Shown: positions 12,301 through 23,378, counted from the stretch's first letter. The stretch: DNA of 64,000 bases from Alphaproteobacteria bacterium (GCA_031555055.1 JAVBUT010000008.1:3354-67353); one strand, 5' to 3'. Notes: generated from the letters alone by a model not told the origin. Made by a program: numbers and translations.

Positions 12301-12363
12301 TCAGTGTCAGTGTCAGTGCCAGTGGAAGTGTCAGAAAGACATTAATCCACTGACACTGACACT
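12301..12363. repeat. Periodic hairpin, CAGTGY 6-mer family
   Basis: TCAGTGTCAGTGTCAGTGCCAGTGGAAGTGTCAG ... CACTGACACTGACACT. Lies between the HAD gene start and the rpoC stop. Confidence 0.85.
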
Positions 12364-12368
12364 TTTCG

Positions 12369-15300
12369 TTATATATCCAACAACTGTTGCTGGGTATTGC
12401 CTGCTGACGCCAGCTGTTCCGCTTTTTCTTCGGAACGGGCGATTTCGCGAACACGGCGAACATATGCGCCTGTGCCGATCGGAATCAGACGGCCGACGAT
12501 CAGGTTTTCATTGATACCGACCAGCTTGTCGGTCGCGCCGTTGATCGCAGCGTCAACCAGCACCTTGGTTGTCTGTTGGAACGACGCATTCGAAATGAAC
12601 GAGCGTGATGTCAATGAAGCACGCGTCAGTCCGACCAGAACCTGGCCTGCTTCGGCGGTGCGTCCGCCGTCGCGCGCGACGCGTTCGTTTTCTTCTTCGA
12701 AATCAATGCGATCGACAACCTGGCCCATCAGGAATCCTGTGTCGCCCGGATTTGTGACTTCGACGCGGCGCGTCATTTCACGGATCAAGATTTCGATATG
12801 CTTGTCATTGATCGGCACACCCTGCAAACGGTAAACCTGTTGTATCTGTTCAACCATGAATGTCGCCAAGGCTTTCTGGCCCAATATGCGCAGAATGTCT
12901 TGCGGGACCGGATCGCCGTCGATCAATTTTTCCGCTTTTTTCACAACGTCGCCCGAACGCACCAACAGGTTTGTTCCCTTTGGCACGGCGTATTCGACCG
13001 GCGCGAACCCGTCATCAGGTTCGATACGGATGATAATCTTGGACTTTGCGTCTTCCAGTTCGACCGTACCGTCGATTTCGGCCAGCAATGCCGGGTTCGA
13101 CGGACGACGTACTTCCAGCAATTCGTTAACACGCGGCAGACCGCCGGTAATGTCGGACGTACGTTTTGTCTGAACCGGAATGCGTGCCAGAACATCGCCC
13201 GCGCGAACAGTGTCGCCGTTTGCAACGTTCAGAACCGAATAGATCGGCAACAGATATTCTGCGATTTTCTTTCCGCCCAGCGATATTACGTTGCCGGATG
13301 CGTCAACCAATGTGACCGCCGGTTTCAGCGCCTTTTTGGTCGATGTTTTCCAGTTTGTAACCTTGCGCGAAACAATACCGGTCATAGAATCGACTTCTTC
13401 GGTATAAGACACGTTTTCGATCAGATCGTTAAAGTTGACCACACCGTCTTTTTCCGCGATGATCGTGTTTGAATATGGATCCCATTCTGCAACCTTGGCG
13501 CCCTTTTCGACCGCGTCGCCGTCATTGACGATCAGCATGGACGCATAAGGCAACTTTTGGCTGAATTGTTTTTCGCCTTTCTTATCAACGATCGCGATTT
13601 CGCCATTGCGCGACAGCACAACCACGCGACCCGCGCTGTTTTTAATTGTTGTGACGCCTGTCAGCTTTACGGTGCCGGATACCGGAACTTCGATAAAGTG
13701 ATTTTCCGCAGAACCTGCCGCAATACCACCAATGTGGAAAGTACGCAGTGTCAGCTGGGTTCCAGGTTCGCCGATCGACTGGCCTGCGATAACGCCGACC
13801 GCTTCGCCGACATGAACCAGCGCGCTGCGCGACAAGTCCATACCATAGCATTTCGCGCACAATCCGTCGGATGTGCATGTCAGAACCGAACGGACATCAA
13901 CACTTGGCAATCCAGATTCGTTGATCTGTTTTGCGATCGCCTTGGTAACCAGTTCGCCCTTGCTGACGATAACTTCCTTGGTGATCGGATGAACGACGTC
14001 ATTCGCAACCGTACGACCCAAAACCACGTCACCCAGCGCAACGGACAGACTGCTGCCCTGGTAAACCGGTTTTGCGGTGATAAATTCGGATGTGCCACAG
14101 TCGTGTTCAGTAATAACGGTGTTCTGTGCCAATTCGACCAAGCGACGTGTCAAGTAACCCGCGTCCGCAGTTTTCAACGCCGTGTCGGACATACCTTTAC
14201 GCGCACCGTGGGTGGATGTAAAGTATTCGGACATGGTCAGACCTTCTTTAAAGTTCGATATAATCGGAACTTCGATAATTGATCCGTCCGGCTTGGACAT
14301 CATACCGCGCATACCGGCCAGCTGTTGAATCTGACCCTTGGACCCACGGGCGCCCGACAGAGCCATCATCAGAATGGAATTCCATTTGTCGCCGGTTGTT
14401 TTGCCCAATGCAGCATACGCCAAGTCTCCCAAACGATCCGTTGTCTTTTGCCACATATCGACCAGCTTGATGTATCTTTCGCCATGTGAAATCAAACCAT
14501 TCTGGTATTGTTCTTCGATTTCTTCGGCCGCTTTTTCAGCAGATGCAATCATCGCCTGTTTTTCTTCTGGGATCACGATATCGTCGAACCCGATTGAAAT
14601 ACCGGATTTTGCCGCCTGTTCGAAACCTGTGTTTTTCAGGTTGTCCGCCAGCATGATTGTGTCTTTGTCACCACAGCGTTCATATACGATCGCCAACAGT
14701 TGTTTGATTTCTTTGACCGGCATTACTTTGTTCACCAGGTCAAAAGGCAACTTGTCGGATTTCGGCATCAGTTCGCCCAGCATCATGCGGCCGGCGGTGG
14801 TTTTGTAAACCTGGCCGTTGACGCGCGCGACGATCGGCGTGTGCAGTGTGATCGATTTGTGTTCCAGCGCCATACGGACTTCGTCCATATCTGCAAAGCG
14901 TGGTGATTTGTCGTTGTGTTCGCCATTGATCAAAGAGATATAATACACACCCAGAACCATGTCTTGGGACGGCACGATCATTGGTTCGCCGTTTGCGGGC
15001 GACAAAATGTTGTTTGTGGACAACATCAAGGTGCGTGCTTCCAGTTGCGCTTCCAGTGAAATCGGAACGTGAACAGACATATTGTCCCCGTCAAAGTCCG
15101 CGTTAAATCCCTTACATACCAACGGATGCAGACGGATCGCCTTGCCTTCGATCAGTTTCGGTTCAAACGCCAACAACGACAGTCTGTGCAATGTCGGCGC
15201 GCGGTTCAACAGAACCGGATGCTGGTGAATGACTTTTTCCAGAATTTCCCAAACGACTTCTTCGCCATTTTCAACCATCTTGCGCGCGGTTTTCAAAGTG

Positions 15301-16478
15301 TTCGCATATTCGCCCGCCAACAGTTTGGCAAACACGAACGGTTTGAACAATTCCAGCGCCATTGTCTTTGGCAATCCGACTTCGTGCAGTTTCAGTGTCG
15401 GGCCGGACACAATAACGGAACGGCCGGAATAATCCACACGTTTACCCAACATGTTCATACGGAAACGTCCGGATTTACCACGCAATGAATCAGACAATGA
15501 TTTCAGCGGGCGACGGTTTTGCGAAACCATCGGGCGCGCCTTGTGTCCGTTGTCGAACAGTGAATCGACCGCTTCTTGCAACATGCGTTTTTCGTTGCGC
15601 ACGATGATTTCCGGCGCATGCATGTCCATGAATTTTTTCAGACGATTGTTACGAATGATAACGCGACGATACAGATCGTTCAGATCGGATGCCGCAACGT
15701 GGCCCGCGTCCAGTGTAACCAGCGGTCGCATATCAGGCGGGATAACCGGCAGAACATCCGGCATCATCCATGCAGGATCGGTCTTTGATTCCATGAATGA
15801 TTCGACCAGCTTCAGCTGTTTGATAATGCCTTTGCGTTTTGCTTCGGATTTTGTATCAACCAATTCCGCACGCAGCTGGGTCCGCATGTCACCCATATCC
15901 ATATTCGAAATAATCGCGCGAATTCCTTCGGCACCGATTCCGACGTGGAACGCATCCACACCGAATTCTTCGACGGCGGCCTGGTATTCGTCTTCGCTGA
16001 TCACATCATACAGTTTCAGATTTGTCAGACCCGGTTCGGTTACGATATACGCGTCATAGTACATAACCTGTTCCAGTTTTTTCTGGGGCAAGTTGTTCAG
16101 TAATGTCGCGATCTTTCCTTCGCGCATGAACCAAGTGTGTGATACCGGCATCGCCAGTTTGATGTGTCCCATACGTTCGCGGCGAACGGATGAAGAACCG
16201 ACTTCGACACCACAACGTTCGCAGACAACGCCGCGGAATTTGATACGCTTGTACTATCCGCACGCGCATTCGTAATCTTTGACCGGGCCGAAAATCTGCT
16301 GGCAGAACAATCCGTCCGCTTCTGGTTTCAGCGAATGATAATTGATGGTTTCCGGTTTTTTGACTTCGCCGTGTGACCAGGACAAGATTTCTTCCGGCGA
16401 CGCAATTGTGATGCGCAATGCATCAAACTGTTCTTTGGTTTCAATTTGTCCGAAAATTTTTTGTAACATATTTGACAT
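12369..16478 (-). CDS. rpoC: DNA-directed RNA polymerase subunit beta', interrupted by one in-frame TAG (16254-16256)
   Basis: Single frame of 1370 codons. N-terminal [32 protein letters not shown]...[11 protein letters not shown] covers the Zn-ribbon. NADFDGD is present. TAA at 12369. Confidence 0.93.
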
Positions 16479-16496
16479 TTATTTTACTCCTTGTTA

Positions 16497-22108: not shown

Positions 22109-22782
22109 TATTTTGCTTCTACCTTCAGGCCCGGTCCCTGTGTCGTGGATACGGCGCAAGAAATGATATACTGGCCTTTGGTCGAAGACGGTTTTACCTT
22201 TTTCAACTGTTCAATCAGCGCGGCGACGTTTTCCGCCAACTGCTCTGTCTTGAATGACATTTTGCCAACAGCGGCGTGAACGATACCGTTCTTTTCCGGA
22301 CGATATTCGATCTGGCCTGCTTTCGCAACCTTGACGGCATCAGCAATATTGTTTGTAACCGTGCCCAATTTCGGATTCGGCATCAGACCCTTGGGCCCCA
22401 ATACGCGTGCAACCTTGGACATTTTCGGCATCATATCCGGTGTCGCGATAACGCGATCGAATTCCATGAAACCGCCGGCGACCTTTTCAATCAGCTCGTC
22501 ACCGCCGACAACATCGGCGCCCGCTTTTTTAGCATCGTCCTGTTTGTCGTTTGTAAATACGGCGACGCGAACCTTTTTGCCCGTGCCATGCGGCAAGGAC
22601 AGCATTCCGCGAATATTCTGATCGGCCTTGGTCACATCAATGCCCAAGCGGACGGCAACTTCCAATGATTCGTCGAATTTCTTGGACGCAAAGCCGCGCA
22701 ACGTTTCGATTGCGTCATTAACGCTGTAAACTTTTTCAGCGTCCAGTTTTGACCAAGTCTGGTGTTTTTTTGTAATTTTCAT
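22108..22782 (-). CDS. rplA: 50S ribosomal protein L1
   Basis: FDESLEVAVRLGIDVTKADQNIRGMLSLPHGTGKKVRVAVF. Confidence 0.96.
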   Translation of the reverse strand: MKITKKHQTWSKLDAEKVYSVNDAIETLRGFASKKFDESLEVAVRLGIDVTKADQNIRGMLSLPHGTGKKVRVAVFTNDKQDDAKKAGADVVGGDELIEKVAGGFMEFDRVIATPDMMPKMSKVARVLGPKGLMPNPKLGTVTNNIADAVKVAKAGQIEYRPEKNGIVHAAVGKMSFKTEQLAENVAALIEQLKKVKPSSTKGQYIISCAVSTTQGPGLKVEAK

Positions 22783-22786
22783 GATC

Positions 22787-23218
22787 TTACTCCTCTACCT
22801 TTACGCCCATGGAACGGCATTGACCGGCGACGATGTTCATCGCAGATTCAATGGTAGAGCAATTCAAATCAGGCATTTTTCCTTCGGCAATTTTCTGGAT
22901 TGCGGCCTTGGAAATTGTGCCAACAAAATCACGGCCCGGTTTTTTGGACCCGGATTTCAGCTTCAGTTCCTTTTTGATAAAGTACGAAACCGGCGGCAGC
23001 TTCATGATAAATTCAAACGAACGGTCTGTATAAACCGTGATGACGCAAGGGATCGGCATACCCGGTTCCTTGTCGGATGTTTTATCATTAAATTGTTTGC
23101 AGAATTCGGCGATGTTAACACCCGCCGCACCCAATGCCGGCCCAATTGGCGGCGATGGATTTGCTTGTTTTGCAGGAACGACCAACTTGACCATCCCTTT
23201 GACTTCTTTTTTTGCCAT
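22787..23218 (-). CDS. rplK: 50S ribosomal protein L11
   Basis: [34 protein letters not shown]. Confidence 0.96.
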
Positions 23219-23232
23219 TTTAACACTCCGTG

Positions 23233-23378
23233 TTATTTCTGATTTATGATTTCTGATTTCTGATTTGAATCAGACCATAATCATCATCAGGATTAGAGTT
23301 TGTGGTGCGATGTTGGCACATCTTCCACGCTTTTTTCGATCTATGAAATCAGAAATCCGAAATCATAAATCAGAAATC
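23233..23378. repeat. Periodic hairpin, TCTGATT 7-mer family, about 34-nt arms with about 70-nt loop
   Basis: TTATTTCTGATTTATGATTTCTGATTTCTGATTT ... GAAATCAGAAATCCGAAATCATAAATCAGAAATC. Fills the nusG/rplK gap. Confidence 0.88.

Follow-up and report, generated by a model that had tools for sequence, protein, structure and literature searches.

Tandem-heptamer hairpins at the cistron boundaries of the nusG-rplKAJL-rpoBC cluster of an uncultured gut alphaproteobacterium

We have analysed a 64-kb window (64,000 nt, with positions counted from its first letter) from an uncultured gut alphaproteobacterium, in which the genes nusG, rplK, rplA, rplJ, rplL, rpoB and rpoC follow one another on the minus strand, and compared it with 167 related loci in each of which the seven genes were mapped. 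The subject of this work is a class of periodic hairpins, that is, inverted repeats whose arms are tandem arrays of a short unit, six of which punctuate this nusG-rplKAJL-rpoBC cluster, with others elsewhere in the window (Table 1). The L10 protein of the window has hundreds of relatives with 77-89% identity, named as uncultured Alphaproteobacteria, Rickettsiales or Candidatus Enterousia (animal guts), and the host belongs to the reduced-genome gut order Rs-D84, among the relatives of Candidatus Enterousia. Members of this order have genomes below about 1 Mb, and their dependence on partners is presumed (PMC12306168). This Rs-D84 paper makes no mention of repeats, and no description of periodic hairpins was found in the literature mentioning Enterousia.

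Table 1. Genes, leader-like RNAs, hairpins and arrays of the window. Free energies of folding (dG) are in kcal/mol; ORF, open reading frame; REP, repetitive extragenic palindrome.
Feature	Position	Strand	dG	z	Remarks
nusG	23380-23913	minus			ORF call and tblastn mapping
rplK	22787-23218	minus			ORF call and tblastn mapping
rplA	22108-22782	minus			ORF call and tblastn mapping
rplJ	21338-21820	minus			ORF call and tblastn mapping
rplL	20893-21258	minus			ORF call and tblastn mapping
rpoB	16558-20694	minus			ORF call and tblastn mapping
rpoC	12369-16478	minus			ORF call and tblastn mapping
nusG/rplK periodic hairpin	23235-23377	minus	-55.6	-8.0	ATTTCTG/ATTTATG, 4.6 copies
rplK leader-like stem	23295-23330	minus			GCGUGGAAGAUGUGCCAACAUCGCACCACAAACUCU; inside loop of nusG/rplK hairpin
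Post-rplA periodic hairpin	22049-22107	minus	-29.6	-5.2	unit TCGTRAY; directly after rplA stop
L10-leader-like core	21930-22043	minus			about 110 nt upstream of rplJ; three helices and invariant CUUAA
Pre-rplJ periodic hairpin	21836-21927	minus	-22.8	-3.8	between L10-leader-like core and rplJ Shine-Dalgarno
rplJ/rplL periodic hairpin	21274-21341	minus	-30.9	-6.5	6-nt unit AGTGTC/GTGACA
REP doublet in rplL/rpoB spacer	20832-20887	not assigned	-39.6	-5.8	GTAGGGGCG...CGCCCCTAC type; 27-nt arms
rpoB/rpoC periodic hairpin	16494-16561	minus	-35.7	-7.7	unit TCGTGAT/TCGTAAT
Post-rpoC periodic hairpin	12301-12363	minus	-37.4	-7.6	6-nt unit AGTGTC
Periodic hairpin	7230-7305	minus			unit CTGATTC; left arm degenerate
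rpmF/plsX periodic hairpin	11542-11626	minus	-29.6	-7.2	unit TAACAAT
Degenerate periodic hairpin	24454-24626	not assigned			unit AGGAATC; between tRNA-Trp and virB8
virB8/virB9 periodic hairpin	25357-25509	plus			unit AAATGAA; 40-nt perfect arms, 73-nt loop
virB9/virB10 periodic hairpin	26924-26986	plus			TCGTGAT family; occupies entire 64-nt spacer
Periodic hairpin	29893-29994	plus			unit AGTCAAT; 37-nt arms 97% complementary, mirrored variant unit
lspA/yidC periodic hairpin	32576-32635	minus			TCGTGAT family
Periodic hairpin	38351-38485	minus			32-nt arms identical to those of 25357-25509, variant unit included
Post-gapR-like periodic hairpin	40345-40411	plus			unit GTGCAAA/GTTCAAA; directly after gene
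def/fmt periodic hairpin	46756-46837	minus			unit TCGTGAC
Solo array in ksgA	35531-35561	minus			(CGAATCA)n, in-frame, read as AERITNHESRIT
Array in fmt	46527-46575	minus			(ATAAATC)n, in-frame linker SDLNHKSEIINHKS; short complementary partner
6-nt array, signal peptide of TolC-like outer-membrane protein	54957-54988	minus			MRKLVLVPVLVSVSAIGAVNA
6-nt array, lipoprotein signal peptide	60808-60837	minus			MKTVLTLSLTLALAAC

The six hairpins of the cluster are built in the same way: one arm repeats a unit of 7 nt (of 6 nt in two hairpins) in tandem, and the opposite arm is its reverse complement; Tandem Repeats Finder returned a period of 7 or 6 in every arm. Folding of the sense RNA of each hairpin, in comparison with 200 dinucleotide shuffles, resulted in free energies from -22.8 to -55.6 kcal/mol (z from -3.8 to -8.0), in every case better than all 200 shuffles. 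A first-pass annotation of this DNA had listed hairpins at these six places, and all of them were recovered there.

The position of the hairpins between the genes is equally regular, the 5' base of the stem lying 0-5 nt past the preceding stop, or the stop inside the stem, and the 3' base 1-17 nt ahead of the next ATG, which leaves room just for the Shine-Dalgarno sequence. At nusG/rplK the hairpin starts 2 nt past the nusG stop and ends 16 nt short of the rplK ATG, with mRNA 5' and 3' arms (23346-23377 and 23235-23266) of 32 nt that are 97% complementary and enclose a 79-nt loop of host sequence. The arms of the post-rplA hairpin (22055-22078 and 22084-22107) occupy the slot in which relatives have an ordinary stem-loop of 12-14 bp. 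In the pre-rplJ hairpin (arms 21836-21867 and 21896-21927) the 5' arm is made of four GTTCAAR units and the 3' arm of three to four TTGCACA units; each arm has remained internally uniform, and the two have diverged to 81% complementarity. The stop codons of rplJ and rpoB, both TAG, lie within the stems of the rplJ/rplL and rpoB/rpoC hairpins; the former ends 17 nt before the rplL ATG, and the latter (arms 16494-16527 and 16528-16561) 15 nt before that of rpoC, with only AAGGAG left. Finally, the post-rpoC hairpin (arms 12303-12326 and 12346-12363) starts 5 nt past the rpoC stop, its end being 1-3 nt away from the ATG of the open reading frame that follows (11835-12299), and the 4-nt rplK/rplA junction is the sole boundary of the cluster that carries no structure. 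As a separate observation, rplK and rpoB are preceded (23219-23234 and 20695-20712, minus strand) by a nearly identical short 5' motif, AACACGGAGUGUU(U)AAAUG, which folds into a small hairpin whose loop contains the Shine-Dalgarno GGAG; the motif is present before both genes in L082, one of the related loci, and relatives have a CACUAAC...GGAGUG version before rplK.

The periodic hairpins are not intrinsic terminators: the scan of the sense strand of the window found no GC-rich stem followed by a U run at any of them, their tails (AACAAGG, TAAAGAA, AAAAAAAGG, ATATG) are devoid of U runs, and terminator and promoter consensus scans of the window returned counts no higher than those of shuffles and no sense-strand match at the hairpins. 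The predicted helices, of 18-40 bp, would in contrast be of the kind that RNase III acts upon (near-perfect double-stranded RNA of about 20 bp or more); no rnc gene was found among the window proteins scanned against Pfam.

Such hairpins are not confined to the cluster. A scan of the whole window for tandem arrays returned 20 of period 7 and seven of period 6, compared to none to two for periods 4, 5 and 8-11 and about none in shuffles, and 21 of these 27 arrays fall in the non-coding 16.5% of the window. A search for inverted repeats whose arms are periodic identified 11 strict periodic hairpins in the 64 kb, a number that rises to about 17 with the cases recognized by eye in intergenic regions, with solo arrays besides. 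At least eight unrelated unit sequences are represented. The TCGTGAT family comprises five hairpins and one solo array, and the five hairpins, when aligned, have common termini (TCGTGA...TCACGA) and a common centre, TCGA(A/G)T. The loop of the degenerate hairpin at 24454-24626 holds a REP and other sequence. The suggestion of the first-pass annotation that an element is being well tolerated in a constrained operon describes this situation adequately, since what is observed is a genome-wide repeat class that fills the space from stop to Shine-Dalgarno.

Two hairpins of this class extend into coding sequence. The 3' arm of 25357-25509 lies inside the virB9/CagX-like open reading frame (25450-26925), where it encodes the signal-peptide core FFILHFSFFI, and the 3' arm of 38351-38485 encodes the signal-peptide core of a D-Ala-D-Ala carboxypeptidase (37278-38399), which is unrelated to the VirB9/CagX-like protein. 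In both genes (25450-25520, plus strand; 38330-38399, minus strand) the core is encoded by a 3' arm of (ATTTTTC)n, and, because the complementary 5' arm is found about 70 nt upstream in the 5' untranslated region, the ribosome-binding site and the start codon are placed in the loop. We considered the possibility that the two genes are paralogues and rejected it, as the proteins are alike only in the signal peptide.

Conserved RNA elements are found in two of the spacers that the hairpins occupy. The rplK leader stem, with consensus GUGG(A/U)AGAUGYGCCAMAUCGNACCAC, is present in 129 of 136 related nusG/rplK spacers; according to RNA folding it keeps its own fold within the 79-nt loop of the nusG/rplK hairpin, and periodic arms enclose it in the window, in L082 and in L107, whose arms are of AATGAAT. 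Upstream of rplJ, the core at 21930-22043 has periodic hairpins on both flanks and consists of helices P1 (UUUCUGUCC/GGGACA..GAAA), P2 (UGACGG/CCGUCA, with a variable apical hairpin and the invariant CUUAA) and P3 (AAAAGAG/CUCUUUU, followed by a short GAAA hairpin). It recurs in 130 of 156 related rplA/rplJ spacers, and its alignment (A4) contains 21 pairs, three of them with compensatory changes. A UUAA element is part of the L10 binding site in 23S rRNA. These results suggest that the spacer 21930-22043 is a conserved L10-leader-like RNA and a putative target of L10, in keeping with the expectation of an L10 leader in this spacer of about 120 nt that had been expressed at the outset. The covariance-model search proposed together with that expectation did not identify the element: neither an L10 (RF00557) nor an L1 leader of Rfam was found in the whole window at the gathering score or in the operon at E <= 10, the only matches being tRNAs and chance microRNA-like matches to hairpins.

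The same junctions were then inspected in the related loci, nearly all of which have a stable stem-loop directly behind the stop codon at each boundary. Across five junctions the first 60 nt past the stop are stable in 60-98% of the loci versus 0-45% of shuffles, and the stability threshold is passed at rpoB/rpoC (98% versus 45% of shuffles) and at rplJ/rplL (70% versus 0%). At rplJ/rplL the relatives have a covarying hairpin of 6-9 bp with compensatory double changes in five of six pairs; after rplA, the 12-14 bp stems of the sampled relatives have sequences that are unrelated between species; and at rpoB/rpoC a GC-rich stem-loop is nearly always present, which in a subset of relatives is nested in heptamer outer arms (TTAGTGG/ATTTCTG type) that begin at the rpoB stop. 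Since ordinary stem-loops, with covarying pairs, mark these boundaries in about 160 relatives, punctuation of the cluster by stem-loops seems to be an ancestral trait of the family, and the window stands apart in that its stem-loops consist of tandem heptamers. The density of periodic hairpins is only 0.15 per 10 kb in relatives (2.3 Mb of loci) versus 1.7 in the window, the hairpin-rich close relatives (L082, L083, L106, L107, L109, L156 and L159) being mostly short environmental contigs.

In L082, the closest other species (89% L10 identity), every junction is periodic, with six such hairpins within 3.7 kb; one of them lies in the apical loop of leader helix P2, a position in which L084 has a REP doublet. 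Its units differ from those of the window at the same junctions. At nusG/rplK, each GATTTCT unit of the window's 5' arm is matched by GATTGCT in L082 (T to G) and each AATCAGA unit of the 3' arm by AATCAGC (A to C), and a CGG variant in the third unit is common to both. The arrays of the two species are clearly orthologous here, and a compensatory substitution has spread through both arms. L163 has the 3' array together with a different array on the 5' side. Most unit families of the window are absent from the loci of the relatives and a few are present at other junctions; among the unit families that species have in common at different junctions are GTTCAAA (L062, L109, L112), AGGAATC (L107) and GATTGCT (L082, L159). 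Exact look-ups of the L12 and L11 proteins of the window, aimed at other strains and copy-number polymorphism, returned no record, the sole identical contig (L081, Logan SRR23967709) has the same sequence as the window, and a leader variant, used through a regular expression as a marker for one hairpin-rich clade, did not separate the loci cleanly.

The comparison with related genomes that had been proposed is thereby answered in two ways: stem-loops do lie at the same junctions, but they are mostly ordinary and non-periodic, with L082 periodic in other units. It also bears on the proposal that the hairpins are a dedicated regulatory layer of nusG-rplKAJL-rpoBC, in which RNase III sites or stability determinants set the relative amounts of ribosomal proteins and RNA polymerase. 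The conservation of boundary stem-loops in position, with covariation, over about 160 relatives speaks for such a layer, as do the enclosure of the rplK leader by arms in three species and the predicted helix lengths of 18-40 bp, which would suffice for RNase III. However, equal hairpins are found at many unrelated junctions of the window, and therefore nothing about them is specific to the cluster; short ordinary stems suffice in most relatives; unit, arm length and pairing vary freely, as in the pre-rplJ hairpin and in L163, which lacks a matching 5' arm; and G-U pairs show no clear excess over A-C mismatches. We consequently regard a dedicated regulatory layer as distinctly unlikely. Of the earlier suggestion of mRNA processing or stability punctuation, the operon-specific part is lost, given the hairpins at def/fmt, lspA/yidC, virB8/virB9 and others and the turnover of units, and the part that stands is that stem-loops at these boundaries are ancestral.

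The window also contains REPs, which form a separate family. The GC-rich double REP that had been noted in the rplL/rpoB gap is a REP doublet with a GTAG head, and TAGGGGCG heads occur 14 times in the window, in GC-rich REPs with the GTAG head that are often doublets (7002-7132, 8549-8563, 9301-9446, 20832-20887, 24497, 33215-33282, 44652, 55970 and 60496-60514). Some of them adjoin periodic hairpins or lie within them. The periodic hairpins themselves have no GTAG head, their arms have 16-56% GC and they are internally periodic. Two further stretches with REPs were observed. An open reading frame at 56066-56584 (plus strand) has an Mtd_N domain, the N-terminal domain of the major tropism determinant of diversity-generating retroelements, and a long structured spacer with a REP lies before it. 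At 8478-9450, about 970 nt without a convincing open reading frame are bordered by two direct copies of a segment of about 95 nt (REP plus TATGGTTTATATTCTTGGAAATAAATTAATCAAAAAACAAATCCGTCATTGCGAGCGAATGCGAA..., near 8548-8640 and 9325-9420); the stretch could represent a small insertion or what is left of a decayed element.

Arrays are likewise found inside genes. The array in ksgA corresponds to an insertion of eight residues relative to Rickettsia KsgA (4jxj), and for the in-frame arrays of ksgA and fmt slippage in place is a better fit than hairpin insertion. KsgA also has a second heptamer stretch, (CAGGAAT)n, at 35317-35343, near residue 215. The two 6-nt arrays in signal peptides (54957-54988 and 60808-60837) belong to a GTGTCA family, encode the hydrophobic cores and have no inverted partner.

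Taken together, we favour, with a probability of roughly 60%, the reading that the periodic hairpins are slippage-driven microsatellite palindromes, a genome-wide class that took over ancestral intercistronic stem-loop slots. According to this reading, replication slippage would expand the units and homogenise them within an arm, and the arms would be kept mirrored by arm-to-arm copying on the folded hairpin (template-switch correction), by selection for pairing, or by both. The internal variation of the arms is informative in this respect. In seven of the 11 strict hairpins the complementarity between arms (0.94-1.0) is higher than the identity of units within an arm and higher than in registers shifted by one unit, and therefore variant units are mirrored in the other arm; the hairpins at 21836-21927 and 32576-32635 have the opposite pattern, each arm being uniform but drifted from its partner. 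Homogenisation within arms and copying or selection between arms consequently both seem to be active. Arrays of this kind would have taken over pre-existing intercistronic stem-loops, whose job the predicted mRNA helices of 18-40 bp might do, as barriers to 3' exonucleases or as stems for RNase III processing. At the base of the stem the stop codon would be kept close to the following start site, whereby translational coupling would survive the insertion, and a closed palindrome would add length without altering the spatial relation of stop, Shine-Dalgarno and start, a geometry which, we infer, explains the tolerance. The simplest candidate roles would be those already put forward for the short tandemly repeated repetitive (STRR) hairpins between hupS and hupL of cyanobacteria, transcript stability or translational coupling (PMC2670836), and RNase III processing would be a further candidate.

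Several observations weigh against this reading. A strand test for RNA-level selection gives a weak signal, with 36 mismatches able to form G-U in the sense RNA versus 22 A-C mismatches and 94 others in 60 hairpins. The 32-nt arms that are identical at two unlinked loci (25357-25509 and 38351-38485), down to the same variant unit, and the TCGA(A/G)T centre common to six copies of the TCGTGAT family suggest that ready-made copies were dispersed or that gene conversion took place, neither of which slippage in place would explain. Slippage in place also leaves without explanation the inverted arrays that flank a host leader at nusG/rplK, and, since L163 keeps only the matching 3' array, the paired state is not obligatory. 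Furthermore, every functional step is a prediction.

A rival reading is that the hairpins are neutral, selfish, non-autonomous mobile palindromes, similar to miniature inverted-repeat transposable elements (MITEs) or REPINs, which insert ready-made into permissive non-coding slots or hairpin loops, their neat placement reflecting only where insertions are tolerated. Besides the identical arms and the common termini and centre of the five TCGTGAT hairpins with their additional solo array, such mobility would account for unit families common to different species at different junctions, for REP doublets in equivalent slots (the P2 loop, which is periodic in L082 and holds a REP doublet in L084, and rplL/rpoB in the window) and for GC-rich hairpins nested inside periodic arms in relatives. 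However, the five TCGTGAT copies have no target-site duplications or common flanking duplication, and no transposase or REP-associated tyrosine transposase (RAYT) was found among the roughly 40 proteins of the window that were scanned against Pfam. The copies with identical arms differ in their loops, which are host sequence; loops in general consist of the rplK leader, ribosome-binding sites or gene starts, and no fixed interior travels with the arms. The concerted substitution between the orthologous arrays of the window and L082 amounts to evolution in place, and the solo in-frame expansions within ksgA and fmt are likewise unfavourable to mobility. We therefore consider mobile palindromes possible, if somewhat unlikely.

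Another reading gives the palindromes a positive use: they would arise from an active process in which one arm is copied from the other and a new unit spreads through both, and they would serve as structural clamps that join the stop to the next start, with ribosomes crossing the closed stem. Such clamps might also wrap regulatory leaders or the starts of secreted-protein genes, the latter because in two cases the 3' arm is signal-peptide coding and the 5' arm is antisense to it in the 5' untranslated region. We hold this to be unlikely. If true, heptamer arrays would be a general and evolvable module of post-transcriptional control in a reduced genome, and repeats of the STRR type, which have been without a testable function since their first description, would acquire one.

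It could also be that the RNA structure is incidental and that the arrays are binding sites of a heptamer-recognising protein or act at the DNA level, as cruciforms, nucleoid or replication signals. Something similar has been proposed for the direct TAACTGA repeats that precede start codons in Beggiatoaceae (PMC4679880); in the window, several units have, in our own reading, a TGATT or TGAA core, and the weak G-U bias is compatible with a constraint on DNA. Nevertheless, at least eight unrelated units in 64 kb, with fast turnover, fit poorly to one sequence-specific binder, and arrays are tolerated within coding sequence, which makes this explanation highly improbable. Slippage-driven palindromes in ancestral slots remain our preferred account of the hairpins.

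Two other features of the surroundings of the cluster were recorded. The rpoC gene has an in-frame TAG at 16254-16256 (minus strand; ...YECACG-stop-YKRIKF...), a position that is lysine in all 107 relatives examined (AAA in 82, AAG in 25); TAG is the usual stop of rplA, rplJ, rplL and rpoB in the window. A single-base assembly error or variant (AAG to TAG) is the likeliest explanation, and a real nonsense mutation or suppression may be the alternative. On the opposite strand, type IV secretion genes (VirB8, VirB9/CagX-like and TrbI/VirB10-like; 24687-29269) adjoin the upstream side of tRNA-Trp-secE-nusG, and since the VirB8 gene adjoins secE in the relative L168 too, this neighbourhood is conserved.

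As to the significance of these results, for annotation they mean that periodic hairpins should not be taken as operon-specific regulators or terminators. Cyanobacterial hairpins of the STRR type were described decades ago, and the origins and functions suggested for heptamer repeats are proposals (PMC4692102, PMC2670836). With genomes smaller than about 1 Mb (PMC12306168), the present lineage is a compact system for tests, in which periodic and non-periodic relatives can be compared junction by junction, in which the concerted compensatory change of whole arms is visible, and in which the arrays touch well-understood elements such as ribosomal-protein leaders, translationally coupled cistrons and signal peptides.

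A comparison with known systems makes clear what is shared and what is not. In E. coli, rplKA and rplJL-rpoBC are controlled by L1 and L10 leaders and by an attenuator and an RNase III site between rplL and rpoB. The cluster of the window similarly has leader-like RNAs upstream of rplK and rplJ and a structure in the rplL/rpoB spacer; unlike the E. coli control elements, however, the periodic hairpins are additions around leaders and not the leaders themselves, and neither leader is matched by an Rfam family. REP/BIME-type elements of E. coli stabilise the 3' ends of mRNAs. Like REPs, REPINs and BIMEs, the periodic hairpins are short multicopy palindromes outside genes, placed at gene 3' ends or separating cistrons, but they differ from the described REP classes (PMC3733652) and REPINs (PMC3116915) in having neither a GTAG nor a CGTC head, in being AT-rich and internally periodic, and in that no RAYT is found among the scanned proteins of the window.

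No other long microsatellites are as over-represented in bacteria as heptamer repeats, an excess that has been attributed to polymerase slippage (Mrazek 2007, as cited in PMC4679880 and PMC4692102). Hairpins built of them are known as STRRs from filamentous cyanobacteria. In Nostoc and Anabaena, 7-bp repeats lie between hupS and hupL, and transcript stability or translational coupling has been proposed for them (PMC2670836); to judge from the title of Vioque 1997 (cited in PMC2858038), STRRs also lengthen helices in structured RNAs, which recalls, as far as that title goes, the arms around or inside ribosomal-protein leaders found here. The periodic hairpins resemble them in their tandem 7-nt units, foldable in an intercistronic spacer, and in their many copies per genome; the combination of tandem 7-nt arrays with reverse-complement pairing places them in the same class, which is not to say in a homologous family. 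The differences lie in the host, here an Rs-D84 alphaproteobacterium with a reduced genome and there cyanobacteria with large ones, and in the AT-rich units, of which the 64 kb contain at least eight families, with arrays also within genes and signal peptides. No tandem copy of the STRR1-3 units (CCCCAGT, TTGGTCA, CAACAGT) exists in the window, whose host is not a heterocyst-forming cyanobacterium.

The 70-75 pairs of convergent GGGAATC heptamer arrays per genome of Xanthomonas, with potential stem-loops (Rehm et al. 2015, PMC4692102), and the GGGGAYT arrays of Nostoc are, like those described here, intergenic heptamer microsatellites, and the Xanthomonas arrays also lie at the same genes in related species with varying length and sequence; they differ in being made of one G-rich unit capable of forming G-quadruplexes, whereas the units of the window are AT-rich, diverse and without G-runs. 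Marine Beggiatoaceae have intergenic TAACTGA direct repeats near start codons, ribosomal-protein operons included (MacGregor 2015, PMC4679880), a placement common to the heptamer arrays of the window, but there a single unit is repeated directly, and inverted partners are practically absent, with one such case among 170 sets. The window contains no TAACTGA, and none of the known heptamer units (STRR, Xanthomonas, Beggiatoaceae) is in tandem there. The class of repeats is thus already known. The novelty lies in the host, in the number of AT-rich unit families, in the one-for-one replacement of ancestral intercistronic stem-loops, in the wrapped leaders of ribosomal-protein genes and in a concerted change that can be seen in both arms.

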